Assembly: GCA_021162815.1 (NCBI GenBank)
Contig: JAGGXW010000003.1
Coordinates: 3,542-67,541, forward strand
Direction of reading: 5' to 3'
From: Thermoplasmata archaeon
Lineage (GTDB): Archaea; Thermoplasmatota; E2; UBA202; JdFR-43
DNA: 64,000 nt
This document shows, one piece after another, positions 16,007 through 43,508 of this stretch; positions within the stretch are counted from its first letter, which is position 1; every line of letters begins with the position of its first letter. Made by a program: the position numbers and the translations under genes. The notes beneath the pieces are model-generated. The model ran no database searches, was not told where the DNA came from, and was given only the letters and a program-made list of their open reading frames with translations.

Positions 16007-16247
16007 GTTCACCATAATGGCATGGATACTTGCATTGCTGGCTGCTGCAGCCGCCATATATGCTGTTGAGACAAAAGATTTGATTTCATCTGCCATAGCA
16101 ATGGGGGTTGCAAGCCTGGTTGTATCAATAATGTTTCTTCTGCTTCAGGCTCCAGATGTGGCGATAACGGAGGCTAGTATAGGGGCTGGAATTACAATGG
16201 CCGTGTTTGTGTATGCAATAGGAAAGACAGGGAGGTGGGAAGAATGA
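15969..16247 (+). CDS. MrpB N-terminal-domain-like small membrane subunit (DUF4040/MbhD-like)
   Basis: Two or three TM helices containing APDVAITEASIGAGI. Confidence 0.55.
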   Translation: MLISIGEVRKMIEFTIMAWILALLAAAAAIYAVETKDLISSAIAMGVASLVVSIMFLLLQAPDVAITEASIGAGITMAVFVYAIGKTGRWEE

Positions 16248-20475: not shown

Positions 20476-21422
20476 GCGCAATTATGATAAAATCTGCGGT
20501 TGTGATTGCATACGCTTTCATAGGAACATTTATTGGCTTGCTCTTCCTCGGTGTAGGAAGAAAAATTGTTGCAAGGGTGCATAATAGAGTTGGCCCTCCA
20601 TTCTATCAGGGTTTCATAGATGTTGCAAAACTGCTGAGTAAAAAAACCAACATAAGTCATGGATGGATATTTGACCTCGCTTTATTATTCTCCATATCCG
20701 GCATACTGCTTGCATTTGCATTCCTTCCTGTTGGAGGGATAAAGCTTCTCAGCACGGATGGTGATGCATTCCTTGTTCTTTATCTTCTTGCCATCCCTGC
20801 TCTGGGCTTTGCGCTGGGTGCAGGGGCTTCAGGTAATCCAAATGCCGGGATAGGGGTTATGAGGGCTCTTGTCATGATGCTTTCCTATGAACTGCCATTT
20901 GTGATAACCATGATAGCCCTTATGATATATTATGATACAACCTCCATAGCAAGAATTGTTGAATTGCAGAGTGTGAACGGAATAAGCAGCTGGGCAATAT
21001 TCATACCACCTTTCATGCTTGCAGCCGCAGTTGCTGACATGGCTCTTCAGGGTATGCTGATGGAGCAGCCATTTGATATTCCAGTAGCTCCTCATGAGAT
21101 AGCATCTGGCCCGATGGTGGAATTCGGTGGGAAGTATCTTGGAACTTTAATGCTTTACAAGGCCATAAGCATTGTTGTGGAGACAACGCTTTTTGTTGAC
21201 TTCTTCCTTGGAGGGGGTGTAATAATGCATGGTGGCATCGTTGCCAACATAGCAAATTTCATTGTCTGGTTTGTGCTCATATTTATTGTATTCACCCTCT
21301 CCCTGCTCATAAACACTGCATTTCCACGCTTCAGAATAGAGCAGGCTTTCACATTTTACTGGAAGTATGAGGCAATACTTGCAACAGTTGCCTTAATATG
21401 GGTTTACTGGATGGTGATATAA
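20457..21422 (+). CDS. NuoH-like membrane subunit (MbsM-like)
   Basis: NuoH signature region RVHNRVGPPFYQGFIDVAKLL. Confidence 0.75.
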   Translation: MVYMDVSAIMIKSAVVIAYAFIGTFIGLLFLGVGRKIVARVHNRVGPPFYQGFIDVAKLLSKKTNISHGWIFDLALLFSISGILLAFAFLPVGGIKLLSTDGDAFLVLYLLAIPALGFALGAGASGNPNAGIGVMRALVMMLSYELPFVITMIALMIYYDTTSIARIVELQSVNGISSWAIFIPPFMLAAAVADMALQGMLMEQPFDIPVAPHEIASGPMVEFGGKYLGTLMLYKAISIVVETTLFVDFFLGGGVIMHGGIVANIANFIVWFVLIFIVFTLSLLINTAFPRFRIEQAFTFYWKYEAILATVALIWVYWMVI

Positions 21423-21423
21423 A

Positions 21424-21975
21424 ATGATGAGATATGAAGAATGGAGTGGAATAGCCAGGAAGGCAAGCAAGCGTTCATTGTGGATGGTTCATTTCTGCAC
21501 AGGGTGCGGAGCAATTGAGATGCCACCTGTTATGACATCCCGCTATGACATGGAAAGATTCGGCATAGCTTCCATGGCTACGCCCCGCCAGGCTGATGTT
21601 TTGCTCATAACCGGCTATCTCACCGTTAAAACATTAAAGAGAGTTGTACAGGTGTATGAGCAGATGCAGTCTCCAAAATATGTAATAGCCCTTGGCTCAT
21701 GTACCATGAATGGAGGTATGTACTGGGATTCATACAACACCATAAAAAGGCTGGATAAGTACATTCCTGTGGATATATATGTGGCGGGTTGCATGCCCAG
21801 GCCAGAAGGGATAATGAATGCATTCCTGAAATTAATGAAGCTCATCGATGAGGGAAAAGCCAGAGGATGGGAGAGATATAAAAAATATTATGAGAGGTAC
21901 AAGAAAAACCAGGAGATGGCATTCAATTTTGTGAAGAAGGAAGAAAAAGAGGAGGAGAAAAATGAAGGCGATTGA
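21424..21975 (+). CDS. NuoB-like [4Fe-4S] small subunit (MbsJ-like)
   Basis: Four-Cys pattern FCTGCG ... GSCTMNGG ... GCMPRP, typical of NuoB and the small subunits of group-4 hydrogenases. Confidence 0.8.
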   Translation: MMRYEEWSGIARKASKRSLWMVHFCTGCGAIEMPPVMTSRYDMERFGIASMATPRQADVLLITGYLTVKTLKRVVQVYEQMQSPKYVIALGSCTMNGGMYWDSYNTIKRLDKYIPVDIYVAGCMPRPEGIMNAFLKLMKLIDEGKARGWERYKKYYERYKKNQEMAFNFVKKEEKEEEKNEGD

Positions 21976-22432
21976 ACTGCTTGGAAAAGGGGAAGAGATG
22001 AATGGCAGGGCTTATGTGAAGATTGATAAAAGCGAGCTGGAAGAGGCGATTAAAACACTCAAGGAAAATGGTTACAATCATTTTGTCATGCTTTCATGTA
22101 TAGACTGGCTTGATGATGGAGAGTTTGAGTTAGTTTATCATCTATGGAGTTATGAGGAGAGAGAGCATGTTATGTTATCTGTTAGGGTGGCAAGAGATGG
22201 AGAGAGCATGCCATCCATGCATGAACTTTTCCCCCAAATAGAAACCTATGAGAGAGAGATACATGAAATGTATGGAATCAAATTTGAGGGCAATCCCAGA
22301 CTTACGCCTTTCTTCTTAGAGGGGTGGCGTGATATGCCCCCCATGAGGAAGGATTTTGATTCAAGAAAGTTCACCAAGGATGTGTTTGGAAACATATCCA
22401 CCATAGAGGAGGAAGAAGATGAAGGAATATGA
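21962..22432 (+). CDS. NuoC-like subunit (MbsK-like)
   Basis: 156 aa with the NuoC/30-kDa subunit pattern. Overlaps its neighbours. Confidence 0.7.
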   Translation: MKAIELLGKGEEMNGRAYVKIDKSELEEAIKTLKENGYNHFVMLSCIDWLDDGEFELVYHLWSYEEREHVMLSVRVARDGESMPSMHELFPQIETYEREIHEMYGIKFEGNPRLTPFFLEGWRDMPPMRKDFDSRKFTKDVFGNISTIEEEEDEGI

Positions 22433-23546
22433 ATTGTTTATAGGTCCGCAGCATCCTGGAATAACAGGAAACATGATGTATCATTTATGGGCAGAGGGAG
22501 ATACTGTTGTGAAGGCAGAGTGCAATGTCGGCTATCTCCACCGCGGATTTGAGAAATTGATGGAATCCCGTCTATGGATGCAGAATATCCCGCTTGTATG
22601 CAGAATATGCGTCCCCGAGCCAGATGTAAATGAAGCAGCATATTCTATGGCTGTTGAACAACTCATGGACTGGGAGGTGCCTGAGAGGGCAAGGTACATA
22701 AGAACCATTGTTCTGGAACTGGCGAGAATATCTGCATATCTCATGGCAATAGGGGGATATGCTGGCAGTATAGGAATTTACACACTCCCGCAGTGGATGA
22801 CAGGGGATAGAGATTACATACTTGACATATTTGAACAACTCACAGGGGCAAGAGTGTATCATATTTACATATGGCCTGGTGGTGTAAGATGGGATATGCC
22901 GGACAATTTGCCAGGTTTAATAGAAAGAACACTCAATTATATTGAGAAGAGGCTTGAACTTTATGATGATGTTCTTTTCAGAAACAGGATTTTCTTTGAT
23001 AGAGCCGTTGGCATTGGGAAAATTCCAAAAGAAAAGGCAATAGAATGGGGAGTTAGCGGTCCAAATCTGAGGGCATGTGGCTATGGATATGATGTGAGGA
23101 AACTCGAGCCTTATGCAGCTTATGATGAAATTGATTTTGATGTGGTTAAATATCCAGAACTCGGTAAATTTGAAGCTTTGTCAGATGGATGTGATGTGTA
23201 TACCAGAATGATAATAAGGAGACTTGAAATAGAGCAGAGCATAGACATAGTAAGGCAGGCCCTCAAAAAAATGCCTGAAGGGGATATCCTGCTCAAACAT
23301 CCAAACTGGCTGCGCTGGAAGGTGCCGGCAGGCTACGCATTTGCCAGAGTGGAGAGCAGCAAGGGAGAGTATGGTTATTTTGTTGTGAGTGATGGTGGTT
23401 TGAAACCTGTGAGGGTTCATGTTAGGGGCCCGAGCTATACGCATGGAATTAATGTTGCTGAAAGAATATTGAAGGGGGCAAATATAGCGGATGTATCCCA
23501 GATATTGTTCAGCCTTGATATTTGTCCACCGGATATAGAGAGGTGA
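22419..23546 (+). CDS. NuoD-like large subunit lacking the complete [NiFe] ligand set (Mbx/Mbs-L-like, not a hydrogenase)
   Basis: LHRGFEKL and an N-terminal CxxC (VCRIC) are present. The C-terminus ends DICPPDIER, with a single Cys where [NiFe] hydrogenases have DPCxxCxxH. Confidence 0.8.
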   Translation: MKEYELFIGPQHPGITGNMMYHLWAEGDTVVKAECNVGYLHRGFEKLMESRLWMQNIPLVCRICVPEPDVNEAAYSMAVEQLMDWEVPERARYIRTIVLELARISAYLMAIGGYAGSIGIYTLPQWMTGDRDYILDIFEQLTGARVYHIYIWPGGVRWDMPDNLPGLIERTLNYIEKRLELYDDVLFRNRIFFDRAVGIGKIPKEKAIEWGVSGPNLRACGYGYDVRKLEPYAAYDEIDFDVVKYPELGKFEALSDGCDVYTRMIIRRLEIEQSIDIVRQALKKMPEGDILLKHPNWLRWKVPAGYAFARVESSKGEYGYFVVSDGGLKPVRVHVRGPSYTHGINVAERILKGANIADVSQILFSLDICPPDIER

Positions 23547-23549
23547 AAA

Positions 23550-24038
23550 ATGAGCGTGTTAAAGCCTTTAAAGGCATGGAAACATCTTGCAAGAAAGCCG
23601 CACACCATAAGGTATCCGAAGGAAGAGCATACGGACATGGATGGAAATAAATTACCTACGGACAGGCTGAGGGGATTCCATTCAAATGATCTGAGCAGAT
23701 GCATAGGATGCAAGCTGTGCGGCAGTATATGCATGAACGGTGCTATAACATATGAAGAAATACCTGAACTTAAGGGAAAAGAGGGCGTTAAGGGAATAAA
23801 CATCCGCCCTGTCATAGATTATGGAAGGTGCTGCTTCTGCGGTTTATGCACCGATATATGTCCGACCAAATCTCTGAAACTCACACCCAATTACAAACTC
23901 ATAAGCACGGACATAAATGACTTCAAGTTCATGCCAACCCAGCTTGTGGAAAAGAATGAAAATTTCGAAATGGACCTGAATGCAGTGATGTTCAGCGCAA
24001 AGGAGTATGCAGAAAAATTTGAGAAGGAAGAAGACTAA
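23550..24038 (+). CDS. NuoI-like 2x[4Fe-4S] ferredoxin subunit (MbsN-like)
   Basis: CIGCKLCGSIC and CCFCGLCTDICP motifs. Confidence 0.8.
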   Translation: MSVLKPLKAWKHLARKPHTIRYPKEEHTDMDGNKLPTDRLRGFHSNDLSRCIGCKLCGSICMNGAITYEEIPELKGKEGVKGINIRPVIDYGRCCFCGLCTDICPTKSLKLTPNYKLISTDINDFKFMPTQLVEKNENFEMDLNAVMFSAKEYAEKFEKEED

Positions 24039-25644: not shown

Positions 25645-26139
25645 TCAATACTCCAGTCCCTCTATGGCATTTGTTCCTGAATCAAAATAGTGCTTCACAT
25701 TCCTCATTTCTGTTACCAGATCTGCGGCATTTATTATCCTTTCATGAGCATTTCTTCCCGTTATTATTAAATTTGTTTCTCCTCTCTCCTCAATCAATCT
25801 CATTGCATCATCTATGTTAACGAGTCCCATTGATATGGCAACATTGAGCTCATCGAGTATGAGAAGGAAGGGCTTTTCCTTTTTTATCAATTCTCTTGCA
25901 AAATCCATGCCCTCTCTGGCAAGTTTATAATCTTCTTCAGATGGCTTTATCACGAATTCCTCCCTTCCAAACTGATATACGGGAAATGGTATGGCTTTTA
26001 TCTCTCCATACTCTCCCTTCTTGAGAAATTGCACCATGAACACCTTTTTGCCGTGACCATGCGCCCTGCAGCCTGTGCCTATGGCTGCGGTGGTTTTTCC
26101 CTTGCCGTCTCCTGTGAAGACAAGTACCTTTCCCTTCAT
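25645..26139 (-). CDS. cobO: Cob(I)yrinic acid a,c-diamide / corrinoid adenosyltransferase (CobO/BtuR type)
   Basis: P-loop TGDGKGKTTAAIG and the LDE motif (LLILDELNVAI). Confidence 0.75.
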   Translation of the reverse strand: MKGKVLVFTGDGKGKTTAAIGTGCRAHGHGKKVFMVQFLKKGEYGEIKAIPFPVYQFGREEFVIKPSEEDYKLAREGMDFARELIKKEKPFLLILDELNVAISMGLVNIDDAMRLIEERGETNLIITGRNAHERIINAADLVTEMRNVKHYFDSGTNAIEGLEY

Positions 26140-27782: not shown

Positions 27783-28916
27783 ATGAAAGTTGCAATGGTC
27801 ACAGAGTGGTTTGATGCGAGGGGTGGTGGAGTTTCCGTGCATGTAAGGTATCTTACTGAGTTCTTGAGTAAATATGGTGTTGAAGTTGAGATAATAACAA
27901 GTCGCTGGAATTATGAAGAGATGCCCGTAGATGTACCGGTGCATGTGATTAAAGGACCAAAAGATCCATTTTTTAGAGTCAACATATCTCCCTGGATGTC
28001 TAAAGATATGATAAAAATAATAAAAAATGGAAATTTCGATGTTATTCATGCGCATCATGCATTTGCAAGAATGCCTCTTAGTGCCATCAGCATTGCCAGA
28101 GAGCTTGGTGTGCGAAGTGTGCTCACCACGCATACAGTATCATTTATGCCAGATTACGAATACCTCTGGAAAACGGTAAGTTACAGTTATCCTCTATATA
28201 GAATGATGATATCAAAGGCTGATGAAATAATTGCAGTGAGCGAATCTGCCAGAATGTTCATTTCTTATTTTACTGATGTGCCTGTGATAGTTATACCCAA
28301 TGGGGTGGATACATACAAATTTAGAAATATTGATAAGCGTATGGCTCGAGAACTGTTGGGGTTTGGTGATGAGCCATTTTTCCTGTATGTTGGCAGACTT
28401 GTGAGCAAGAAAGGCCTTTTTACTCTATTATTGGCGTTTAAAAGTGTTTTGAAAGAGGTTCCAGAAGCAAAGTTGAGGATCGCAGGCAAGGGGAAACTAA
28501 AAACTGTTCTATCTTCTTTTGCAAAAGCGCTGGGGATTGATAAAAATGTGGAATTTTTAGGTTATGTTCAGGACAATCTTCTAAATCCTCTTTTTTCGTC
28601 TGCGGATGTATTTGTTTTGCCGTCGGCATTTGGGGAATCCTTTGGCATAGTTATCCTGGAAGCTATGGCGTCAGGTACTCCAGTGATTGGCACAAAGGTG
28701 GGTGGCATAGAAGAAATTCTCAGCAATGGTAATGGTGTATTGGTTCCACCCTCAGATCCATCAGCACTGGCGAATGCTATGATTTCTCTTATAAATGATG
28801 CGGATTTACAGAGAAAAATTGTAAGAAGGGCTTTAGAAAGTGTGAGAGAGAAGTACGACTGGAGATGTGTTGCAAAAAAGGTGATGAGTGTTTATGAGAA
28901 GTCTTATGTATCGTAG
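27783..28916 (+). CDS. GT4-family glycosyltransferase
   Basis: GT-B fold with the EAMASGTPVIGTKVGGIEE donor-binding motif (E-x7-E). Confidence 0.8.
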   Translation: MKVAMVTEWFDARGGGVSVHVRYLTEFLSKYGVEVEIITSRWNYEEMPVDVPVHVIKGPKDPFFRVNISPWMSKDMIKIIKNGNFDVIHAHHAFARMPLSAISIARELGVRSVLTTHTVSFMPDYEYLWKTVSYSYPLYRMMISKADEIIAVSESARMFISYFTDVPVIVIPNGVDTYKFRNIDKRMARELLGFGDEPFFLYVGRLVSKKGLFTLLLAFKSVLKEVPEAKLRIAGKGKLKTVLSSFAKALGIDKNVEFLGYVQDNLLNPLFSSADVFVLPSAFGESFGIVILEAMASGTPVIGTKVGGIEEILSNGNGVLVPPSDPSALANAMISLINDADLQRKIVRRALESVREKYDWRCVAKKVMSVYEKSYVS

Positions 28917-29212
28917 CTCAAAACTCTATACTTTGATGCTTCAAACTATTCATGGAAAGTATTTGGATCGAAGATATCGAGAAATTGCAAGTATTGTGAA
29001 CAATCGAAGAGTTTTTGGTATTGGATGTGGACCTGCATTACTGGGTGAATACATTGTGAATACATTGGAAAAGATAGATATGCTGGGATGGATTTAAATC
29101 AGAAATTCGTGTTGTATGCCAGAAAGAAGGGATATAACTGTACAGTTGGCGATATTTTCGAAGAAGAATCCCCTGTGGTGGATGTTGGTGTGGCAGTAGA
29201 TGTACATCACTG
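28888..29212 (+). pseudogene. Frameshifted and C-terminally truncated class I SAM methyltransferase remnant
   Basis: Frame 1 gives ...RRVFGIGCGPALLGEYIVNTLEKIDM then a stop at 29097. The +2 frame continues YAGMDLNQKFVLYARKKGYNCTVGDIFEEESPVVDVGVAVDVHH then stops. Together these span MTase motifs I and II only, about 110 aa against the ~200 aa expected. Confidence 0.5.
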
Positions 29213-29342
29213 AAAACCAATTTTAGCACTTTTCAAACGACCCAATTTTTGACATTCAGTTCTTTTTCTATGATTCGGTAAATCAAAACCATGATAATCT
29301 GTGAATAAGGCTCTATCTGCCGTTAAAATTATTCTTGCCATC

Positions 29343-30725
29343 TTAATCACCTTTCATCACAGAACTTGCCATCTTTATAGCGCTGGGAATCGCCCTTCTG
29401 AATATGAAGCCCTTTCTTAAGATTAAATCTTTGATGAGATACAACGGGCGTATGTAGAAGGATATATATGCTTTCTGCAACAGTTTTGTTATTTGCTGGG
29501 AGGTGAAGTTTTTGAGTTTCATCACAGGATCCAAGGTTGTGTATTTTCTCCAGTTGAAACTCAGTATGAGGTTTTTCGATAAAGAATAATTCCACAATCT
29601 TGTTCCGGGATAGGGAGTGGCTATAGTGAACTGTGCATAATCCACTCCCACCCTTTTTGAAAATTTAATGGTTTTCTTTATATCTTTCTTTGTTTCATCA
29701 GGGAATCCAATAATGAATGCTCCTAAAGCACGGAGTTTATATTTTTTTGCTTTCTTAACTGCAGCAAGCGATTGCTCCGGTGTTATTCTTTTACCTATAA
29801 AATCCAGAGTACGTTTAGAACCGGATTCAATGCCAAAATACACGGTATGACATCCACCCCTTTTAAGAGATTGGGCAATTTCTTCATTAAAAAGATCAAC
29901 TCTGGAAGAGGCTGTCCACGAAATATCAAGTCCTTCCTCCACAATTCTTTTTGTTATCCTTATCGCTCTTGGTCTGTTAAGAGTAAAGGTATCATCTAAA
30001 AACTCTATTTCATGAATCCTGTATTTTTCATGAAGGTATTTCAATTCTTCAATTACCCTTGAATCGCTGTGCCCGCGCCACCTCTTTCCAAATTGAAGAG
30101 AAGAAGAGCAGAATGCGCAATTAAACGGGCATCCTCTGCTCGTCATTACAGTTCCAAATCTGACTCCATCTACCTGATATTTTTCCATTGGAAGTAAATC
30201 GTAGGAGGGCATGGGAATTGTATCAACATCCTTTATAAGAGGGCGCGGAGGATTATTCTTTATTTTACCGCCCATATTTATGCTTAACCCCAAAATATTT
30301 GAGACATCTCTATTTTTTTCTAAGGCATCAATAAGCTGTTTGAATGTTATTTCTCCTTCTCCCCTCACTATAAAATCTATGCATGGACATTCTTTGAATG
30401 TTTTTTCGGGAACAAATGTTACATGCGGTCCTCCTATTACGATTTTCACATTTTCATTATGTTTTTTTGCCATTTTTGCGACAGTATATGCATCAGGAAT
30501 CATGGATGTGGTTGAGGTGATACCAATAACATCGGGGTCATAACTCCTTATTATTCTATCAACATCCTCGTATGTATAATCTTCTGCCAGAGAATCAACT
30601 ATGTGAATATCATGTCCATCTCTCACCATGGAAGCCAGATATGCCAAACCGAGAGGTGGACCTGTTGTTCCGACAATTGCTTTAATTGCACTTATAGTTG
30701 GGGGAGAGAGTAGCAGAATTTTCAT
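29343..30725 (-). CDS. B12-binding domain / radical SAM protein (class B radical SAM)
   Basis: N-terminal cobalamin-binding Rossmann-like domain and the radical SAM motif RGCPFNCAFCSS. Confidence 0.8.
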   Translation of the reverse strand: MKILLLSPPTISAIKAIVGTTGPPLGLAYLASMVRDGHDIHIVDSLAEDYTYEDVDRIIRSYDPDVIGITSTTSMIPDAYTVAKMAKKHNENVKIVIGGPHVTFVPEKTFKECPCIDFIVRGEGEITFKQLIDALEKNRDVSNILGLSINMGGKIKNNPPRPLIKDVDTIPMPSYDLLPMEKYQVDGVRFGTVMTSRGCPFNCAFCSSSLQFGKRWRGHSDSRVIEELKYLHEKYRIHEIEFLDDTFTLNRPRAIRITKRIVEEGLDISWTASSRVDLFNEEIAQSLKRGGCHTVYFGIESGSKRTLDFIGKRITPEQSLAAVKKAKKYKLRALGAFIIGFPDETKKDIKKTIKFSKRVGVDYAQFTIATPYPGTRLWNYSLSKNLILSFNWRKYTTLDPVMKLKNFTSQQITKLLQKAYISFYIRPLYLIKDLILRKGFIFRRAIPSAIKMASSVMKGD

Positions 30726-32309
30726 TTAGCTCACCTCTATTTTTTCTATCTTTATATCCATCGGTTCCAGGGGCTTATCAACATCAACACCTTTCCTGAT
30801 TGCCCATTTTCTTATGCTTTGAACAATCAATCTTGAACCGAACTTTGCAAGTGGCATGAATACCAGTAAATTTGGATTCCCTTTAGTTACTCTCTTTAAA
30901 CCGTGGTCTACCTCCCATGCGAGATGTCTCCATGCATGATAAATATGCAGAATTCTTCCTTTGGTAAGATGCTCCTCAACATTAAAGAATTCCTTCTCCT
31001 TCAAACTGGCCATGGGAACAAAACCCAATGGAGTTACAGAGAAATGTGCTTTCTCACCCAGTTTTTCATATAATTTATTCTCCATTGTAACAATCAGCCT
31101 TGCTGTATCTATCTCATCTTCATCTGTCTCCCAGGGCAGGCCAACTATAGTTGTATATGCCGGAAACCAGTAGAATTTATTGAATGCGTATGTTCCGTTT
31201 AGCAGAACCCAGGGCCATTCATCAGCGCTGAATGGTTTCATCTTGTTGTTTGCTATCTTTTTTATCAACTCTGGAGAGGCTGTCTCAAACCCAACCTGGA
31301 TGCCAATCCATTTATTCAAATTTGCGTGGTCCAGCTCAGCAACCCTTTTAAGTATCCGTGGCGCAGCAAGAGCGCCTGCCACAGTGCCATGAGTGGGATT
31401 TGCGAAATCAGCTTTACTTAAAACCTCTTCAAATAAATTGATTACAGCATCTTCATTTGGATAAAAATTTCTCCTGTCCTCTACCATATAATTAAATATG
31501 TCCTCGCTGTGCAACCATGCCGTCCTCTGCCCGGCACCCAGATTTATATCCACTTCTTTCAATATTTTTTCTAAAGGATAAAATCTTGCCCTTCTCAAAT
31601 TTGGAGAACAAAATCTGCACCCTCTGCCACATCCACGCATAACCTCTATCATTCCTTTATAGGTGGGATTTACAACTGTGGGAATATCCTCAATCTTTGG
31701 CCAGTTTTTAATCTTTATAAAATTATCTGCTCCTTCATTTTCTATATCTCTGAAAATATCTCCTATGACGTGCTCGGTTTCTCCCCATATTACATGGTCT
31801 ATGCCTAACTCTTCCGTCAGATCCTGCTTCAATTCAAACTGCCATCCCGCCTGGCTTCCAACAACTATCTTGAATTTATATCCCTTTCTTTCTCTGTAAT
31901 CCCTTAATCTTCTTATAAAGGAAGTAAAAAGATATTTTGAATAGGATGTTTTCTTACCTCCCTCAGTAAACATTAAAGTTACGGGCCCCAAACCATAAGG
32001 GTCCATTGTGTTCACTCCAACTATCGTTGTTTTCTCATCTATAAATTTTTCAATCTTTTTTGGATGAGCGACTATGATATCCTCTCTCTTAAAGCCATCT
32101 TTTATAAGTGCTGCCTCCACCTTTCTTATTGCATATGGGGCCTGGATTAACATACCCCCCCTGTCTGGAAGCTGGGTGTCCAGAATTTTGTATATAAACT
32201 TTGGCACAGTTTCAACGGGTGCACATGGTAAAAAATCGAGAAGAGGTATATTCCTAAATGTGGATGTCAAGCTTGGGTCAGAGGTTAGGACTATTCTCAT
32301 TCTAATCAC
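30726..32309 (-). CDS. B12-binding-like domain / radical SAM protein (second paralog)
   Basis: A ~220-aa N-terminal Rossmann-like domain, then MRGCGRGCRFCSP. Its stop directly abuts the downstream gene. Confidence 0.7.
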   Translation of the reverse strand: MIRMRIVLTSDPSLTSTFRNIPLLDFLPCAPVETVPKFIYKILDTQLPDRGGMLIQAPYAIRKVEAALIKDGFKREDIIVAHPKKIEKFIDEKTTIVGVNTMDPYGLGPVTLMFTEGGKKTSYSKYLFTSFIRRLRDYRERKGYKFKIVVGSQAGWQFELKQDLTEELGIDHVIWGETEHVIGDIFRDIENEGADNFIKIKNWPKIEDIPTVVNPTYKGMIEVMRGCGRGCRFCSPNLRRARFYPLEKILKEVDINLGAGQRTAWLHSEDIFNYMVEDRRNFYPNEDAVINLFEEVLSKADFANPTHGTVAGALAAPRILKRVAELDHANLNKWIGIQVGFETASPELIKKIANNKMKPFSADEWPWVLLNGTYAFNKFYWFPAYTTIVGLPWETDEDEIDTARLIVTMENKLYEKLGEKAHFSVTPLGFVPMASLKEKEFFNVEEHLTKGRILHIYHAWRHLAWEVDHGLKRVTKGNPNLLVFMPLAKFGSRLIVQSIRKWAIRKGVDVDKPLEPMDIKIEKIEVS

Positions 32310-33787
32310 TTATCTGGAAGAGTTTGAGTTATCTTTTTCCACTCTTTTTCCATTATTATACATCCCGGATCTGGAGAAAGAATATCTCCGTAATAGGCAT
32401 ATGCCCTTGCCCTGCATCCTCCGCAAACATATCTGAATGAGCAGGTGTGGCACGCGTAATTTTCTGCATCTCTGTCTCTCAATTTGTTGAATACTTCACT
32501 GTTTTTCCATACATTTGTAAATCCATCTTTTAGAACATTACCTACTTTTATTGGAAGGAATACACACGGTTGGATATCTCCATTATGCTCTATTGAACAG
32601 TAAATTCTTCCTGCTCCGCATCCTCCAATGAATTCTGTTAAAGCCTTGGCGGCGCCACCAAATTCTGCAGGTATTTCCATTTCAGCAAAATGAGTTGGTG
32701 ATACCTTATCTCCTGTGCCTTTATCCATTGCAGTTATTGATATTCTTGCATATGCAGGACATGTGGAAAAAATCTGCATTTTTCCTTTTTCCCATTCATC
32801 ATATAAATACTTCATAAGTTTTTCTCTTTCAATGGGGCTGAGATCTTCTTTCACTATCTCCTTTCCTCTCCCGGTTGGTATGAAATTGAAAACAATAAAT
32901 CTATCCACCATTAACTTTCTGGCAAGCTCTATCATTTCTGGGAGGATATCCAGATTATAGTGAGTTATGGTGGTGGCTATACCTGTGGATAAACCGGCAT
33001 CTCTTGCATTTTTTATACCCCTTACTGCCCTCTCAAATGCATTCTTAACTCCTCTAAACTCATCATGAATTTCAGAATTCGGGCCATCCAAGCTAACTTC
33101 AACATATCTTATTCCAGTCTCCTTCAATCTTTTTGCAATATTCTCTGTTATCAGTGTCCCATTTGTCGCAATCGAAATATAAAATCCTTTTGAAGCGGCG
33201 TATTCTGCAACTTTCCAGAAATCTTTATTCATCAACGGCTCTCCTCCTGAGAAAGATATTGCTGCCACACCTGCCTCATCCAGTTGGTCAACAACATTTA
33301 ATTTTTCTTCTAAAGTAAGTTCATCAGGTGCCGGATATGGCGTTGCATTGGCGTAGCAATGCTTGCATTTGAGATTGCATTGCTTTGTAAAATCCCATAC
33401 AACCATAAAAGGGGCAATTAATCTCTGGGGTTTTGTAATCCCGTATTCGGCAATACTCCTTATTACTACTGCAAAACCTTTTCTCATATAGGGATCTTTA
33501 AGAAATTTTTTAATTGCATCTGGTTCTGCACCAAATTTTTCAGCACCTTTTTCAAGTGTACTTCCTACAATCTTGGCATGAAGACCTTCTCTAACATCTT
33601 CTGGCTCTTCAACACCTGCATATATCGCAAATGATTTCTCCAATTTTTTCACTTCGGTCATTTTTTTCAGAATGAAATTTATAAATTTATGATCCATAAT
33701 TTTGTGGAGATATTCTATGATCTCCCCTTCATTCATGTTATTTTTCATGTTATTTTTCTCACTCATTGCTACCCACCTCTTCATCAA
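32306..33787 (-). CDS. Radical SAM protein with C-terminal SPASM/twitch-type auxiliary cluster domain
   Basis: CNLKCKHC (Cx3Cx2C) about 130 aa from the N-terminus. C-terminal Cys-rich region CGAGRIYCS ... CHTCSFRYVCGGCRARAY. Confidence 0.8.
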   Translation of the reverse strand: MMKRWVAMSEKNNMKNNMNEGEIIEYLHKIMDHKFINFILKKMTEVKKLEKSFAIYAGVEEPEDVREGLHAKIVGSTLEKGAEKFGAEPDAIKKFLKDPYMRKGFAVVIRSIAEYGITKPQRLIAPFMVVWDFTKQCNLKCKHCYANATPYPAPDELTLEEKLNVVDQLDEAGVAAISFSGGEPLMNKDFWKVAEYAASKGFYISIATNGTLITENIAKRLKETGIRYVEVSLDGPNSEIHDEFRGVKNAFERAVRGIKNARDAGLSTGIATTITHYNLDILPEMIELARKLMVDRFIVFNFIPTGRGKEIVKEDLSPIEREKLMKYLYDEWEKGKMQIFSTCPAYARISITAMDKGTGDKVSPTHFAEMEIPAEFGGAAKALTEFIGGCGAGRIYCSIEHNGDIQPCVFLPIKVGNVLKDGFTNVWKNSEVFNKLRDRDAENYACHTCSFRYVCGGCRARAYAYYGDILSPDPGCIIMEKEWKKITQTLPDK

Positions 33788-34199
33788 TCTTTCCCAGATA
33801 TCTCAAACCATCTTCTATATGCTTAATTAATTCTCTATATTTATCTTTTTTATTTTCAAGAGATTCCCTCGCCTCGGTAAGAAATTTTATGACTCTTCTT
33901 CTTTCATTAGTTATTATTTTTACAAAATCAATAACTGCTCTGTAAGCGTAACATTTGCCCTTTTTATCTCTCTCTACAAGTTCATACCTCCTTAAATGAT
34001 TTAGAGCATTGACCACAGAACTATATGCATAGTCTATTTCTTGAGATATCTCCTTAGCACTCATGGGGGTGTTTTTAATTGCAAGTAAGGCGTATATTGT
34101 TGCTTCAATATCTCCCAAACCCCAGTGTGCCATTACTTTTTTTAAAGTGCGAAATGCTGCATGGTTTATAATATTTCTCATGTATTTGAGATATATCAT
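33759..34199 (-). CDS. Winged helix-turn-helix transcriptional regulator
   Basis: MSAKEISQEIDYAYSSVVNALNHLRRYELVERDKKGKCYAYRAV gives an HTH plus wing pattern. Overlaps the start of the radical SAM gene. Confidence 0.55.
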   Translation of the reverse strand: MIYLKYMRNIINHAAFRTLKKVMAHWGLGDIEATIYALLAIKNTPMSAKEISQEIDYAYSSVVNALNHLRRYELVERDKKGKCYAYRAVIDFVKIITNERRRVIKFLTEARESLENKKDKYRELIKHIEDGLRYLGKIDEEVGSNE

Positions 34200-34470
34200 A
34201 ATGATATATAAATATTCCTCCTATTTTTAACCAGCTCTTCATTATATTTTCTTTACCCCTTCCAAAGAATGGAAAAAAGAAAAGAATAAAATTTGCTATT
34301 CGTTCAACAAAGCAGTTATATGTATAACTCAGGCATCATCAAAACAAAATGAACAAATTTATTCATCATCACACATTCATTTTCATTTGATTTTTCATCT
34401 GTTAAATTAAACTTTAACGGGGTTAAAATTCTTTTTAGGTAGTGTTTATTTATATGCCTAATTTTAAGGT
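34200..34470. promoter_or_regulatory. Divergent intergenic region between the wHTH/radical-SAM operon and the LuxE-like/transglutaminase-like pair
   Basis: 271-nt AT-rich spacer. GGAGG sits 17 nt before the regulator ATG. Confidence 0.3.
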
Positions 34471-35832
34471 TTGATGCAGAATAATGATTATCTACCGAAG
34501 TTCAATAAGTATGCGAAAGATTATGTCCCGCATGTTAATACTCCAGTGGAGAAGGCAGTTTATGAGCCAAAGAGCTTTTTCAGCATTCCCGACAGGGAGG
34601 CAAATGAGTACAAATTCAAGGCAATAAAGTATGCATTCAAACATCATTATGAGAACAATTCATTTTACAGGCAGATGTGCAAGGAGAAGGGTGTGACTCC
34701 AGATGATATAAAGAGTATAGATGATTTTGTTAAGATTCCTCTTGTGCCTCATGAATTTTTTAAAGGTTATCCATCCGGCAAGGAATTTGCCATGTGGCTT
34801 GTTAGCATAATGAGCATTGACCCTCCAAAAATAGTTGTTAAGGGTAAAAATCCAACATATGATGATGTTATCTCAGCCTTTGCAGATGCCGGCATAGTTG
34901 TTGCATACAGCAGCGGAACGACGGGCAGATTCACATTCATACCCAGAGATGAGAACACATACAAGATGGCGGAATATTCCATAGGAAAGAGTGCCATTGA
35001 CATGCTCCAGCACTGGTGGGATTATGATACCTATGCATATCTTCTATTCCCCGATCCCAGAACAACAAACATATATGTGGGAAAGGTTACAAGAATTCTC
35101 TTTGATGTTGTGAAGGATACGAGAGTTGCTATTGAAACGAAAATAACCACAGACCTGCTCCGCATTTCCATGGGAAACGTTAGAAATCTGAAGGAAAAGA
35201 TGTTGAGCAAGCTCATAGCAAGCAAAATGAAGAAGATGAATGACCAGATGGTAAATAAGATAATAAAATGGGCTGATGAAAGGAATAAGAACAAAGACAG
35301 GATATTCTTTGCAGGCGCTCCCTTCATACTCAACATGGTCATGGAAAAGATGGATGAGGATGGCATTCGGTATGATTTTGGAGAAAGAGGAGCGATACTC
35401 ACGGGCGGCGGCTGGAAGACGCAGGAGGACAAAAGATTGCCTGTTGAGGAGTTCAGAAAGAAGGTGGAGGAGTTTTTCGGCATACCTCCTGAGAATACTC
35501 TTGACTTATATGCCATGGTGGAGGGAAATGGATTCATTGTTCACTGTCCGGAGAGCCATTATCTGCATATTCCAAAAACATATTATCATCCCATTGTGCT
35601 TGATGAGAATGATGAGCCTGTAGCTCCAGGAGAGGAGGGCAGGTTTGCATTCCTTGATGCTATTCCAAAAAGTTATCCTGGTTTCATAAAGACGGGAGAT
35701 AAAGTGAAGCTTATCGATAGCTGCGATTGCGGAAGAGAGGGTTATGTTCTTGAGCCTGAGGTTAGCAGAATAAGGGGCGAGGAAATAAGAGGTTGTGCTG
35801 AGGAAATGAGAAGAATTTTGAGAGAGGGATAA
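34471..35832 (+). CDS. Adenylate-forming enzyme, LuxE acyl-protein synthetase / PaaK-like family
   Basis: AMP-binding motifs AYSSGTTGRFTFIP and ILTGGGWK. Overall length and pattern resemble LuxE/F390-synthetase-like enzymes. Confidence 0.6.
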   Translation: MMQNNDYLPKFNKYAKDYVPHVNTPVEKAVYEPKSFFSIPDREANEYKFKAIKYAFKHHYENNSFYRQMCKEKGVTPDDIKSIDDFVKIPLVPHEFFKGYPSGKEFAMWLVSIMSIDPPKIVVKGKNPTYDDVISAFADAGIVVAYSSGTTGRFTFIPRDENTYKMAEYSIGKSAIDMLQHWWDYDTYAYLLFPDPRTTNIYVGKVTRILFDVVKDTRVAIETKITTDLLRISMGNVRNLKEKMLSKLIASKMKKMNDQMVNKIIKWADERNKNKDRIFFAGAPFILNMVMEKMDEDGIRYDFGERGAILTGGGWKTQEDKRLPVEEFRKKVEEFFGIPPENTLDLYAMVEGNGFIVHCPESHYLHIPKTYYHPIVLDENDEPVAPGEEGRFAFLDAIPKSYPGFIKTGDKVKLIDSCDCGREGYVLEPEVSRIRGEEIRGCAEEMRRILREG

Positions 35833-35834
35833 AA

Positions 35835-36812
35835 ATGAGGAAGTTAAGAGAGATAAGGGAGAAGGGCCACATCATGCCCTGGAGAATGTTTAAGGTGACC
35901 ATGCGCGCCTTGCCACCACTGGTAAAGGCAATGGTAAAGCATCCTGTAATGATAATCAAGAGCAACATGAATGCAAAGAAAATGATGGCAGAGATGAAAT
36001 ATGAGCTGCCATATGAAATACCCGTGTATAAACCAGGTATGCCCTACTGCAAATCAAATAAGAGGTATCTCAGGCCAACCCATCTATGCAATCCTCATGC
36101 ACCTGAGATAGTAGCCCTTGCCAACGAACTTGGAGCATTCCAGCTTGATGATTATGAATATGCGGAGAATGTTTTCAACTTTGTCAAAAACAACATAAAA
36201 CTTGCATTTGTCGGGCTGGATAGAGAGGTGGATACTTTGAGAAGAGGAGCCGGAACATGCGTTCATCAGCTTTCATTGCTTATTGCACTTCTCAGAGCAG
36301 GATGTGTTCCAGCAAGATACAGGCTATACAGTCTTGCCGTGGTTGAATCTCTTTATGAAAATGAGGTGAAAGCATCTGAAGTGGTTAGAGAATGGTATGA
36401 TGCGATGGGGGCCTTCATGCTTCATGGCACTGGAGAGGTTTACATAGATGGTGAGTGGCTTACGGCTGACCCAACATTCACGCCAGCCTACGAAGCAGCC
36501 ATGGGATTGCCACTTGCAAAGTTTGGCGAGGATCCTGTTGGCGTGTGGAACTTCCCGGTTGAGGGAACAGTAATGAGACTGGAAGGTCTGCCTTATGGGG
36601 CTGGAGCAGCATGGAACATCCTTGCAAATTTCATTGCAAAGGGAGAGAGGCTTAAGATAGACATGAGTATGGAGAGGGCAAGGGAGGAAGGAAGAAGGAT
36701 ACTTGAAGAGATGGGAATGGAAGCATATGATGAGATGGTTAGGAGGAAATATAAGGCAAAGATACCAAAAATAACCCTGGAAAAATCTCCACAGCTTGTA
36801 TTCGTAGATTAA
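35835..36812 (+). CDS. Transglutaminase-like cysteine protease superfamily protein
   Basis: Core motif GAGTCVHQLSLLIALLRAGCVPARY with downstream His/Asp candidates. Translationally coupled to the upstream gene by a 2-nt gap. Confidence 0.6.
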   Translation: MRKLREIREKGHIMPWRMFKVTMRALPPLVKAMVKHPVMIIKSNMNAKKMMAEMKYELPYEIPVYKPGMPYCKSNKRYLRPTHLCNPHAPEIVALANELGAFQLDDYEYAENVFNFVKNNIKLAFVGLDREVDTLRRGAGTCVHQLSLLIALLRAGCVPARYRLYSLAVVESLYENEVKASEVVREWYDAMGAFMLHGTGEVYIDGEWLTADPTFTPAYEAAMGLPLAKFGEDPVGVWNFPVEGTVMRLEGLPYGAGAAWNILANFIAKGERLKIDMSMERAREEGRRILEEMGMEAYDEMVRRKYKAKIPKITLEKSPQLVFVD

Positions 36813-36872
36813 GGAAAGCCGAACAAAACGTATTTAAATTTATTCCCTTTTCCTATTTGGAGGTAAATAAAA

Positions 36873-38486
36873 ATGAAATCTAAAATGCTGGCAGTATTTG
36901 TGGTTGCTGCAATGCTTGCAGCGGGTTTTGTTTCTGCAATTAACATGCAGATAGAGAAGAAAGAAATAAGAATAACAGGTGTGGCATCAGGCAATAGCTT
37001 GAGTGTTGCAGTGCACAAAATAAAGCCAATGAATCTTGCCATGGAAGGAAAGGAGATAAAGAATGCATTTCATCCTGTGGCAAGAACCACGGATATACCT
37101 GTAGGAAATCAAGAAACGACGGAGATGCATCCTACCGTTGCTACAGATGGCAAGGTTTATTTTGCGGGATATACAAATTCAGAGGATATTCTCACACAGG
37201 ATATATATATGGCATATTCTCCAGATGGAACAAACTGGCAGCCAACAGGGTACTGGAACATAGATGGAGTTGAGGATTATCCATCCTTTGATTACTGGGG
37301 AAATGGAAAGTATTACGGAACATTCCAGCCTGATCCAAGCACTTCCTATCAGTATCTCATGAACGCATCTGACATAACTGATCCAAGCACATACAGTCTT
37401 GTTTACTGGGACTGGAGCAGCTATGGATGGTATGATTTTAAAGAGCCTGCCATAGCATGTGACGGCAGCCAGAATCCATGGGAATATGGATTTATAGCAA
37501 CAATAGCATCAACAACCTACACTGGTTATGAATGCACAAATGCTCCTCATATGTTCTTTGCAGACCCGGAGGATTCAAATAGAGGTTATATAAGCTGGTA
37601 TAACACATACAATAACACAATGCACTGCGATGTGGATATTGATACCTCAACTCATATGGGTTACGCAGTTTATGACTGGCTCAATGAAAGCAGCAGCAAG
37701 TGGACAATCCTTATCTGGGAGAGAAGCTTTGAAGATCCTTTAAATGGAGACAGCACAGTTATTGAACTGAACAGTCAGCACAATGACCAGGTTCCATCTG
37801 TTGGAGCGGCAGGTGGATATGTTTACATAGCATGCCAGGAGGATTATAATATACCCGGTAAGAATGACATAGTTTGCTATTACAGCCATGATGGTGGCGT
37901 CACCTGGGAGGAGAGCGTTATAGCAGGAGATCCTGCAAAGGATGAGATGTATCCAAAGATTATTGCCTATGGCGACAGCGCAGCCTGCATATATCTCATG
38001 GATGGTGATGTGTACTATTCATTTACCACAGATGGAGGAGCAACATGGAGCGAGCCTGAGAAGGTAAATGATAATGCTGGCTCTGTTGTAATGGAATACA
38101 GGTCTGCAATGCTTGCCAAGGGTGGAGCCGTAATGTGGACAGATAATCAGGCAGGAAATTATGACGTGTATTATGACAATGTTGGAGTGCCATCAGCTCT
38201 GATTACCATAGAGGGCATAAAGGGAGGATTTGGAGTAAGTGCAACCATAAAGAACATTGGAGGAGCAGCTGGAAAGAGCATACCATGGAGCATAAAGTTT
38301 GATGGACTTGTTTTCCTAAACAAGGAGAAGAGTGGAACAGTTGATATAGCTCCTGGAGAGGAGAAGACAATCAGCACAGGATTTGCCCTTGGAATAGGCC
38401 CTGTCACAGTAACAGTAACAGCAGGAAGTGATACAGCAACTGCCAAAGGATTCATGCTTGGTCCCCTTGTGCTGGGACTCAAGTAA
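36873..38486 (+). CDS. Secreted BNR-repeat (sialidase-like beta-propeller) protein with C-terminal CARDB-like domain
   Basis: Signal peptide. BNR motifs YSHDGGVTWEES and FTTDGGATWSEP. C-terminal beta-sandwich pattern. Confidence 0.6.
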   Translation: MKSKMLAVFVVAAMLAAGFVSAINMQIEKKEIRITGVASGNSLSVAVHKIKPMNLAMEGKEIKNAFHPVARTTDIPVGNQETTEMHPTVATDGKVYFAGYTNSEDILTQDIYMAYSPDGTNWQPTGYWNIDGVEDYPSFDYWGNGKYYGTFQPDPSTSYQYLMNASDITDPSTYSLVYWDWSSYGWYDFKEPAIACDGSQNPWEYGFIATIASTTYTGYECTNAPHMFFADPEDSNRGYISWYNTYNNTMHCDVDIDTSTHMGYAVYDWLNESSSKWTILIWERSFEDPLNGDSTVIELNSQHNDQVPSVGAAGGYVYIACQEDYNIPGKNDIVCYYSHDGGVTWEESVIAGDPAKDEMYPKIIAYGDSAACIYLMDGDVYYSFTTDGGATWSEPEKVNDNAGSVVMEYRSAMLAKGGAVMWTDNQAGNYDVYYDNVGVPSALITIEGIKGGFGVSATIKNIGGAAGKSIPWSIKFDGLVFLNKEKSGTVDIAPGEEKTISTGFALGIGPVTVTVTAGSDTATAKGFMLGPLVLGLK

Positions 38487-42179: not shown

Positions 42180-43508
42180 ATGATATGTCCTCTTGACTTT
42201 AGATATGGCAGGGATGAAATAAAAAATATTTTCAGTGAGGAGAGCCGGCTGCAGTACTGGCTGAGGGTGGAGGCAACACTTGCCAAGGCTCATGCGCATG
42301 TGGGAAATATTCCCAAGGAAGCTGCAGAGGAGATAGAAAAGAAGGCAAATCTGAAGTATGTTAAGATTGAAAGAGTTAAGGAGATAGAGAAGGAGATAAG
42401 GCATGATGTCATGGCAATGGTGAAGGCTCTTGCCGAGCAGTGTGAGTACGGAAAATATATACACCTGGGAGCAACATCCTATGATATAGTGGATACATCA
42501 AATGCTCTTCAGATGAGAGATGCTCTGAACATAATTGAGGATGAAATGAAAAAACTGCTGAAAACCCTCCTCTCCCTTGCAAAAAAATATAGAAACACTG
42601 TCATGATTGGAAGAACTCATGGACAGTTCGCTCTTCCCATAACATTTGGTCTGAAGATGGCCGTTTTTGCATCCGAGGTGGGAAGGCATATAATGAGGTT
42701 GAGGGAAGTAAGAGAGGAAATATCAGTGGGAAAAATGTCAGGTGCTGTTGGTACAGGAGCTGCCTTCGGAGAAAAATTCTTTGAAATACAGGATTTTGTC
42801 ATGAAGGAGCTGGGTTTGAAGGCAGAGATTCCCGCAACCCAGATTGTTGGTAGAGATAGATACATATCTCTTTTCAGCCTTCTTTCAAATATCGCTGCCT
42901 CCATGGAAAAGTTTGCCACAGAAATAAGAAATCTTCAGAGAAGCGAGATAGGAGAGGTGGAGGAATTCTTTGAAAGCAGCAAGCAGGTTGGCTCCTCAAC
43001 AATGCCTCATAAAAGAAATCCAATAGTGTGCGAGCAGATAAGCGGGCTTTCCAGAGTTATAAGAAGCAATCTTATCCCCGCCTGGGAGAACGCTATACAG
43101 TGGCATGAGAGGGATTTAGCAAATTCGTCATCAGAGAGATTCATAATTCCCCATGCTCTTGTGCTGACTGACTGGGTGGTATATCAGATGAACAGGGTAT
43201 TCTCAAACATCGTTGTGAATGAGGACAGAATGAAGGAGAATATAGAGAAAAGCATGGGCCTGCCGATGGCGGAGGCTGTCATGATAAAGCTGGTGGAAAA
43301 AGGAATGAGCAGACAGGATGCTCATGAGCTCTTGAGACAGTGTTCAATGGAAGCAAGGGAGAGAAAAGTGCATTTGAGGGAGGTTCTTAAAGATCACGGA
43401 ATTGATAAAAAGATTGATGTGGATGAATTGTTCAGGCCTGAGAATTATACTGGAAAGGCTGGAGAGATTGTGGATATGGTTGTTGAGAAATTATCCAAAG
43501 AAATCTGA
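42180..43508 (+). CDS. purB: Adenylosuccinate lyase
   Basis: Fumarate-lyase signature region (GSSTMPHKRNP) and a PurB-like N-terminus. Confidence 0.9.
   Translation: MICPLDFRYGRDEIKNIFSEESRLQYWLRVEATLAKAHAHVGNIPKEAAEEIEKKANLKYVKIERVKEIEKEIRHDVMAMVKALAEQCEYGKYIHLGATSYDIVDTSNALQMRDALNIIEDEMKKLLKTLLSLAKKYRNTVMIGRTHGQFALPITFGLKMAVFASEVGRHIMRLREVREEISVGKMSGAVGTGAAFGEKFFEIQDFVMKELGLKAEIPATQIVGRDRYISLFSLLSNIAASMEKFATEIRNLQRSEIGEVEEFFESSKQVGSSTMPHKRNPIVCEQISGLSRVIRSNLIPAWENAIQWHERDLANSSSERFIIPHALVLTDWVVYQMNRVFSNIVVNEDRMKENIEKSMGLPMAEAVMIKLVEKGMSRQDAHELLRQCSMEARERKVHLREVLKDHGIDKKIDVDELFRPENYTGKAGEIVDMVVEKLSKEI

Follow-up and report, generated by a model that had tools for sequence, protein, structure and literature searches.

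Gene content and organization of the cluster

The DNA analysed here, hereafter called the window, is a stretch of 64,000 nucleotides from contig JAGGXW010000003.1 of a Thermoplasmata archaeon (assembly GCA_021162815.1). Between positions 29343 and 34199 it carries four tightly packed genes on the minus strand in the order wHTH-gms-grs-gmm (Table 1), encoding a winged helix-turn-helix protein (wHTH) and three radical S-adenosylmethionine (SAM) enzymes, which are assigned below to the formation and modification of glycerol dialkyl glycerol tetraethers (GDGTs) and glycerol monoalkyl glycerol tetraethers (GMGTs). An earlier reading of this DNA, made without database searches (the sequence-only reading), had described four co-oriented, abutting or overlapping minus-strand genes, and the open reading frames (ORFs) indeed lie at exactly these positions. 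The overlap between gms and grs amounts to 4 nt, and the gap between grs and gmm is 0 nt. The stop codon of the wHTH gene overlaps the start of gms (ATGAGTGA), provided that gms begins at the ATG at 33766. Two starts are likely for this gene, namely this ATG, with a Shine-Dalgarno-like GAGGTG upstream, or the ATG at 33748, which fits the N-terminus of Gms from Thermococcus guaymasensis (Tg-Gms). The four genes are presumably transcribed together as a single leaderless transcript. Combinations of wHTH, gms, grs and gmm are found together in more than 30 independent loci, and with this recurrence the arrangement is not due to chance.

Identity of the three radical SAM enzymes

In the 493-aa gene product the sequence-only reading had seen a SPASM-type radical SAM enzyme only and missed its identity as a GMGT synthase: over 477 aa, ungapped and with the N-terminal extension included, it is 80% identical to Tg-Gms. 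AhbD homologs with an N-terminal extension of about 100 aa are GMGT synthases (Garcia et al., PNAS 2024, PMC11214058); this extension (COG4001) sets Gms apart from AhbD, to which Tg-Gms is 36% identical (PMC11214058). In the window protein, residues 14-127 align without gaps with the N-terminus of Tg-Gms, and the hidden Markov model (HMM) of AhbD covers residues 128-477 only, with 318.8 bits against a cut-off of 500. The extension is thus present, and by its identity and the AhbD score below cut-off the enzyme sides with the verified Gms, not with AhbD; the extension itself is putatively lipid-binding. The CX3CX2C motif is CNLKCKHC (residues 137-144; C137/141/144), and nine more cysteines follow at 343, 390, 397, 408, 446, 449, 455, 458 and 476, the SPASM domain being PF13186. 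This count suffices for two fully ligated auxiliary [4Fe-4S] clusters; two fully cysteine-ligated auxiliary clusters in the SPASM domain are described for Gms (Li et al., PMC11186832). To judge by this evidence, the enzyme is an ortholog of Gms, with predicted GMGT-forming activity.

The 460-aa enzyme is 82% identical over 452 aa to Gmm of T. guaymasensis (Tg-Gmm, WP_062369928.1; bioRxiv 10.1101/2025.10.20.683597). It possesses a B12-binding domain (PF02310, 9.5e-30, residues 13-131) together with a radical SAM domain (PF04055, 4.4e-29), whose CX3CX2C motif is CPFNCAFC (199-206; C199/203/206). On these similarities it is an ortholog of Gmm, and methylase activity is predicted for it.

Concerning the middle enzyme of 527 aa, identity is 58% over 518 aa, with one gap, to a Thermococcus kodakarensis protein (P0286, BAD84356.1) and about 60% to the grs product of the T. 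guaymasensis cluster. BAD84356.1 sits at 139-141 kb of AP006878.1 and is the only family member listed for T. kodakarensis; from this position, its being the sole listed member and the accession offset from TK0001, we take it to be TK0167. TK0167 is the grs gene deleted in T. kodakarensis host strains, as shown by deletion and complementation, and its expression yields GDGT-1 to GDGT-4 (bioRxiv 10.1101/2025.10.20.683597; PMC12107092); it has been called GrsA' (bioRxiv 10.1101/2025.10.20.683597). The middle enzyme is accordingly, as its alignment indicates, an ortholog of GDGT ring synthase, the label GrsA' being carried over via TK0167 alone. A housekeeping radical SAM enzyme had been suspected here, since the homolog stands solitary, with unrelated genes around it, in P. 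horikoshii, T. henrietii and M. fervens; this was dropped once the T. kodakarensis member was taken as TK0167 and hence as grs.

The motif of Grs is CGRGCRFC (227-234; C227/231/234); among its 527 aa there is one other cysteine, C29, and there are no cysteines for auxiliary Fe-S clusters. Two of the three enzymes had been described earlier as B12-binding. This holds for the 460-aa enzyme by Pfam, whereas in the 527-aa Grs no B12-binding domain was detected by Pfam and the resemblance is found at fold level only. The residues ahead of its radical SAM motif can be aligned with the final part of the cobalamin domain of Gmm, and an AlphaFold2 model built with 28 homologs (mean predicted local distance difference test score, pLDDT, 88.4) contains an N-terminal alpha/beta domain. 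Top matches of this model in the PDB by Foldseek were the cobalamin-type enzymes MgmA, TsrM (with cobalamin), AprD4, CysS and TokK; MiaB, which is not of the cobalamin type, was also among the best fold matches. The model thus points to a B12-type architecture, with a Rossmann-like domain followed by a partial TIM barrel and putative cobalamin binding, and this fold agrees with the published placement of Grs among B12-type radical SAM enzymes (2026 review, PMC13459092).

The catalytic motifs are intact in all three enzymes. Sequence searches of the PDB with the three returned distant matches only and no solved ortholog.

The Tes-like radical SAM gene reported earlier at the end of the window is borne out by a match to GDGT-MAS (E 2.4e-80), the GDGT/macrocyclic archaeol synthase of PDB 7TOL. 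This tes gene is unlinked to the tailoring operon, lying about 28.5 kb from the wHTH start. Since the window holds a tes ortholog, the organism could make the GDGT substrate itself.

The candidate regulator and its operator-like palindrome

The wHTH protein matches PF01978 over residues 25-89 with 38.8 bits (cut-off 25.6). A C-terminal effector (sugar)-binding domain as in TrmB was not detected in it, the C-terminus being a predicted helical tail. As its start, the alignment and the spacing from the TATA box favour the ATG at 34181 (140 aa) over 34199 (146 aa); the latter, the start of the longest ORF, falls within a candidate operator, and the automatic calls in related assemblies use this long form. 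From the spacing of TATA box, palindrome and ATG, the leaderless transcript would start at the ATG at 34181.

The association of this protein with gms is strict. In 11 loci from a Gms-seeded scan of the GTDB species genomes, the gene just before gms encodes a homolog with 38-69% identity. A wHTH-seeded scan yielded 10 metagenome loci, and gms was immediately next in 9/9 of those with enough downstream sequence; gms is likewise next in L046 and L047 (loci are designated by L and a number), which hold the most distant wHTH members checked (39-40% identity). An alignment including the Thermococcus and Thermoproteales members (A1) was too diverse to seed the metagenome scan, such that a narrower one (A2) was used, which reaches only close relatives of 38-65% identity. 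The family consists of 37 clusters at E<=1e-5 among 5.8 billion proteins. In L046 (9332-11451), a different HTH gene, of 172 aa, runs into the start of one for a 534-aa radical SAM enzyme, which makes a further pair of small regulator and radical SAM enzyme; by BLAST, this enzyme is not Grs-like.

Upstream of wHTH, the loci have only three things in common: a TATA box with a transcription factor B recognition element (BRE), an 18-bp dyad of the consensus of about TTATGAGAATTCTCATAA after 2-3 nt, and the start codon. A TTTA[AT]ATA element about 30 nt from the start codon is present in 16 distinct related loci, and the sequence further upstream is unalignable. The dyad is perfect in L014; the window possesses an imperfect copy (O1) and, abutting it, a second candidate (O2) that overlaps the probable start codon of wHTH. 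In the entire 64-kb window, O1 has the best score by position weight matrix (PWM; 19.7), and O2 (17.0) is also in the top four. Self-complementarity of the dyad averages 5.25/9 over 16 loci, versus 2.23 in control 18-mers, a value reached by 0/10000 shuffles. The 18-mer following O1 exceeds the 99th percentile of background in 12/17 loci, and the conservation of O2 may owe partly to coding constraint. The PWM scan of the window found no convincing operator upstream of tes, of the glycosyltransferase gene or of other genes, the other high scores lying inside ORFs. An ORF of 450 aa (43491-44843, minus strand), for which no Pfam domain was found at E<=1e-4, holds a chance-type match of this kind at 44170-44187. 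The palindrome is absent from the Thermococcus loci.

The conservation of the 18-bp palindrome at its place between TATA box and start codon suggests that wHTH is an autoregulated repressor of the operon. A site between the TATA box and the transcription start site (TSS) is typical of archaeal repressors (TrmB, Lrs14, Phr-type), and a repressor bound there would block transcription. The sequence-only reading had already taken a dedicated regulator as a sign of conditional expression, and the strict wHTH-gms pairing and the conserved promoter palindrome strengthen this argument. To our knowledge, little is understood of how archaea regulate the modification of their membrane lipids. No regulator tied to gms, grs or gmm is reported in either Gms paper (PMC11214058, PMC11186832), in the 2026 review (PMC13459092) or in the publications found by our literature searches.

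Gene arrangement among related loci

The Gms-seeded scan yielded 29 loci, mostly from metagenome-assembled genomes (MAGs) of Thermoplasmata, the deep-sea hydrothermal vent euryarchaeotal group 2 (DHVE2), Thermococci and Thermoproteota; the nearest named MAG loci to the window are Thermoplasmata/DHVE2. The complete order wHTH-gms-grs-gmm is shared by the window, L001, L048 and L049. Other loci exhibit wHTH-gms-gmm (L011, L013, L014, L019, L037), wHTH-gms-grs (L008, L039, L041), wHTH-gms-grs followed by a second grs-like gene, grs2 (L040), gms-gmm-grs (L016) or grs-gms(-gmm) (L005, L012). The genes gms and gmm are direct neighbours in L005, L010, L011, L013, L014, L016, L017, L019, L023 and L037; in the window they are parted only by grs.

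Two gene remnants are situated next to the operon in the window. Directly after gmm, an ORF of 44 aa matches, in 20/24 residues, the N-terminus of an intact Grs-like protein in L040, and is thus a remnant of grs2. The intact L040 gene (about 4176-5684, 534 aa) encodes a protein 31-33% identical to Grs and TK0167; L040 in turn holds a decayed gmm. GrsA makes C-7 rings and GrsB makes C-3 rings; grs2 could encode a GrsB-like enzyme or a new activity. The second remnant, which had been noted earlier as a decayed methyltransferase, covers the beginning (~105 codons) of a gene still intact in L008 (11240-11833, minus strand), a locus without gmm. With the intact 197-aa L008 protein as query, tblastn recovered two parts in different frames, residues 1-54 with 91% identity and residues 52-106 with 84%.

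Because the window contains the remnants of grs2 and of the methyltransferase gene, and L040 a remnant of gmm, the ancestral order was likely wHTH-gms-grs-gmm-grs2, convergent with a methyltransferase-GT4 pair (GT4, glycosyltransferase family 4), of which the different lineages would have lost different parts. The remnants of grs2 and of the methyltransferase gene thus indicate a cassette in flux. The variants and remnants together indicate modular gain, loss and exchange of the tailoring genes, which matters for inferring lipid producers from metagenomes.

Surroundings of the cluster

Table 1. Positions of the operon, its promoter elements and further genes in the 64-kb window
Feature	Position	Strand	Evidence and remarks
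TrmB-like winged-helix DNA-binding protein (wHTH)	33759-34199	-	146-aa ORF, PF01978
gms, GMGT synthase, radical SAM/SPASM (predicted)	32306-33787	-	493-aa ORF, Radical_SAM 1.1e-33 and SPASM 4.5e-10
grs, GDGT ring synthase (GrsA'-type), radical SAM (predicted)	30726-32309	-	527-aa ORF, Pfam Radical_SAM only
gmm, GMGT methylase, cobalamin-dependent radical SAM C-methyltransferase (predicted)	29343-30725	-	460-aa ORF, PF02310 and PF04055
TATA box TTTATATA, A-rich BRE-like stretch before it	34205-34212	-	conserved position, predicted
Candidate operator O1, TTATGATATATCTCAAAT	34184-34201	-	imperfect TTATGAGAATTCTCATAA copy between TATA box and start codon
Candidate operator O2, ACATGAGAAATATTATAA	34166-34183	-	abuts O1, overlaps probable wHTH start codon
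grs2 remnant (second grs-like gene), MARIILTADRALFTDYHGFD	29207-29341	-	44-aa ORF directly after gmm
Class I SAM methyltransferase remnant	28894-29219	+	one frameshift, C-terminal half gone; follows GT4 gene, overlapping start
GT4 glycosyltransferase	27783-28916	+	PF00534 2.8e-45, PF13439 7.9e-28
CobA/BtuR corrinoid adenosyltransferase	25645-26139	-	PF02572 5e-53; 3.2 kb from cluster
tes, tetraether synthase (GDGT-MAS)	62388-63857	-	phmmer E 2.4e-80, residues 7-439, PDB 7TOL; PF04055 4.7e-23

Three groups of neighbouring genes were considered as parts of the system. The corrinoid adenosyltransferase named in the sequence-only reading is present, but a link to the cluster is not upheld, as the gene is adjacent only in near-identical strains and is absent from all other loci of the Gms-seeded set. 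The GT4 gene, said earlier to follow downstream, does lie there, but on the plus strand, convergent with the operon and outside it; proteins 79-83% identical occupy the same place in L008, L037, L039 and L040, and the gene is absent from the DHVE2 and Thermococcus loci. The plus-strand genes at 34471-38486, divergent from wHTH, encode a transglutaminase-like protein, a protein with BNR repeats and a LuxE-like acyl-protein synthetase whose N-terminus resembles PaaK; outside near-identical strains they are not conserved, and they are probably unrelated to the lipid genes. CobA, GT4 and the divergent LuxE-like genes are hence unsupported as parts of the system.

Elsewhere, the window is archaeal in its gene content, with genes for archaeal DnaG, aIF5B, XPD and SRP54 and for an Mbh/Mrp-type membrane hydrogenase. 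The latter genes form a co-oriented cluster at 16235-24038 on the plus strand with Mrp/Mbh-type membrane subunits as well as NuoH, NuoB, NuoC, NuoD-like and ferredoxin subunits, corresponding to a membrane-bound hydrogenase or an Mbx-type complex.

Weighing of alternative explanations

The sequence-only reading had left three explanations side by side, of which membrane-lipid tailoring, with GrsA/B-like ring formation, methylation and a link to Tes, is the one that holds, in view of the identities to TK0167 (58%) and Gmm (82%). We regard the cluster as an operon that tailors membrane-spanning tetraether lipids by cross-linking, cyclising and methylating them in a thermophilic euryarchaeon, with a probability of about 0.88. 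The second explanation was a cryptic maturation system resembling those of ribosomally synthesized and post-translationally modified peptides (RiPPs), with a precursor peptide as the substrate for cross-linking by the SPASM enzyme and for C-methylation by the B12 enzymes. The SPASM enzyme does match mycofactocin, PqqE and sactipeptide maturase models, and the 460-aa enzyme matches ApyD and RiPP C-methyltransferase models; however, all these matches to peptide-maturase models are far below the curated cut-offs, each of the three enzymes shares 58-82% identity with a characterised lipid enzyme, and the conserved part of the locus holds no gene for a protease, a transporter or a RiPP recognition element. 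There is also no conserved small ORF across the related loci, in line with the previous statement that no precursor-peptide ORF is evident, and the 44-aa ORF after gmm is accounted for as the grs2 remnant. A 13-aa ORF (MNKFIHHHTFIFI), named before as an unconvincing candidate, is present in the divergent spacer and no more convincing now, the spacer being unconserved outside near-identical strains. A peptide product is therefore highly improbable. The same low standing is given to a tetrapyrrole or cofactor pathway, the third explanation, with an AhbD/NirJ-type SPASM enzyme and BchE/HpnJ-like cofactor or hopanoid B12 enzymes supplied by CobA 3.2 kb away. Among NCBIfam models, the SPASM enzyme matches AhbD and NirJ2 best and the 460-aa enzyme BchE and HpnJ; yet AhbD stays below its curated cut-off, as do BchE (244.6 versus 481) and HpnJ, and the AhbD model leaves uncovered the first 127 residues, that is, the extension which parts Gms from AhbD (PMC11214058). 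Furthermore, no other heme or siroheme genes are found in the cluster, CobA is adjacent in near-identical strains only, and the 80-82% identity to Gms and Gmm effectively refutes the cofactor reading. All matches to curated HMMs were sub-threshold.

Concerning the regulator, a different explanation keeps the lipid-tailoring enzymes and removes wHTH from their control: it would be a passenger, a regulator of other genes or an adaptor, and the palindrome an ordinary promoter-proximal element. This we consider unlikely, though clearly less so than the peptide and cofactor pathways. It would fit the lack of a ligand-binding domain in a protein of 140-146 aa, and it would fit that several Thermococci and Thermoproteota loci, besides T. 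guaymasensis, have gms without wHTH at the head. Against it stand the direct succession of wHTH and gms in every informative locus retrieved from the wHTH side (9/9 plus L046/L047), the overlap of its stop codon with the gms start, a dyad symmetry far above that of the shuffled controls and the location of the palindrome between TATA box and TSS, as in archaeal repressor sites. A dedicated autoregulated factor for tetraether cross-linking, of about 140 aa, acting as a dimer on a single 18-bp palindrome or on two abutting ones and responsive to temperature or membrane stress, is the alternative, to which we give even odds. Several points weigh against the overall reading of a regulated lipid-tailoring operon. 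Lipid activity in this organism is deduced from orthologs; the identity of Grs to a characterised enzyme is the lower one (58%), such that ring position and number are uncertain, and Grs may either accept GMGT or act before Gms. The role of the regulator is read from synteny and a DNA motif; this motif is AT-rich, the loci sharing it are phylogenetically related and O2 overlaps coding sequence. The PWM scan of the window revealed no second operator upstream of tes or other genes, and T. guaymasensis has the three enzymes without this wHTH heading the cluster.

Proposed function

In the pathway proposed for the lipid-tailoring operon, in which the sequence of the steps, the places of the rings and the final lipids are presumptive, Tes would fuse archaeol into GDGT, and Gms would employ its radical SAM cluster together with the two auxiliary clusters of its SPASM domain to make a C(sp3)-C(sp3) bridge between the biphytanyl chains, giving the H-shaped GMGT. 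Grs, as a B12-type enzyme lacking auxiliary clusters, would add cyclopentane rings, and Gmm would methylate the alkyl chain via methylcobalamin, preferably on GMGT. The product would be a methylated and/or ring-bearing GMGT, which would make the membrane denser and more heat-tolerant. A wHTH dimer would occupy one or both palindromes, situated between the TATA box and the start codon of wHTH, thereby repressing or gating the operon, and the signal may be temperature or membrane stress.

The cultured relative Aciduliprofundum makes ring-bearing GMGTs, and GMGTs are used as environmental proxies. For the window, it is predicted that an uncultured, Thermoplasmata-like hydrothermal lineage makes methylated, possibly ring-bearing H-shaped tetraethers. 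In other archaea, GMGT levels rise with temperature (PMC11214058). If the role proposed for wHTH is true, the regulator would constitute a molecular handle on this relation, relevant to GMGT-based palaeoproxies; as a candidate open to testing, it should be of interest to the archaeal lipid field.

Comparison with known systems

The organization found in the window is most readily compared with that of T. guaymasensis, in which the same three genes lie side by side (Garcia et al., PNAS 2024, PMC11214058) and in which Gms and Gmm yield GMGT and methylated GMGT, respectively, on heterologous expression (PMC11214058). In this locus (L005, CP007140.1), genes for a 536-aa radical SAM enzyme (grs, WP_062369925.1), a 480-aa radical SAM/SPASM enzyme and a 462-aa B12 radical SAM enzyme follow each other in a row. 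Despite the same three families on one strand, there are differences between the two clusters: the order is grs-gms-gmm in T. guaymasensis and wHTH-gms-grs-gmm in the window, and the identities amount to 80% for Gms and 82% for Gmm, whereas Grs reaches only about 60%. This disparity suggests that gms-gmm moved horizontally between Thermococcus and the window organism, which are of different lineages. Compared with T. kodakarensis (L006, AP006878.1), T. guaymasensis has gms-gmm and two small ORFs inserted between grs and a pair of regulator genes, one with AsnC_trans_reg and one for a TrmB/MarR-like wHTH, which lies downstream of grs at 4714-5492 in L006 and at 15714-16484 in L005. In T. kodakarensis the pair comes after a solitary grs, and no such pair adjoins grs in T. 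henrietii or P. horikoshii. The T. guaymasensis wHTH is a distant relative of the window regulator (35%, E 4e-10), situated with the AsnC-type gene 1.4 kb downstream and not at the head of the cluster; the Thermococcus proteins are 35-37% identical to the window regulator over 67-110 aa. Such a relative beside grs in Thermococcus may point to a broader class of regulators for lipid homeostasis.

Gms of M. okinawensis (Li et al., Nat Commun 2024, PMC11186832) is composed of an N-terminal helical part, a radical SAM part, a bridging part and a SPASM part, to which the window enzyme is presumably alike by way of Tg-Gms. AhbD and NirJ are the nearest curated HMM families for its catalytic core (residues 128-477); AhbD, however, is without the N-terminal extension of about 115-127 residues, and the window is without a heme-pathway context. 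Concerning Gmm, its subfamily of B12-binding radical SAM enzymes, whose substrates are tetraether alkyl chains, also includes Cgm (Saci_1785), Pgm (T. aggregans) and Ted (Bathyarchaeota B1_G15) (bioRxiv 10.1101/2025.10.20.683597). Cgm and Ted are only 31-34% identical to Tg-Gmm (bioRxiv 10.1101/2025.10.20.683597), and the 460-aa enzyme, because of its 82% identity to Tg-Gmm, is grouped with the canonical Gmm and not with Cgm, Pgm or Ted.

The ring synthases GrsA and GrsB of Sulfolobus acidocaldarius (Saci_1585 and Saci_0240) and TK0167 have a B12-type N-terminal domain and no auxiliary cluster, as predicted for the window Grs; the Pfam B12 domain is, however, undetected in the window protein, which is likened to the Sulfolobus enzymes through TK0167 alone. 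The gene grs lies between gms and gmm in the window, whereas it stands alone in most Thermococcales and in M. fervens. With the TrmB-family regulators, wHTH shares the N-terminal winged helix and an operator position downstream of the TATA box, as in many archaeal repressors; unlike TrmB, it has about 140 aa and no sugar-binding domain, and it forms a separate, very small family tied to gms. The cluster is thus a further case of the system published in 2024, to which the candidate regulator with its palindrome adds a new angle.

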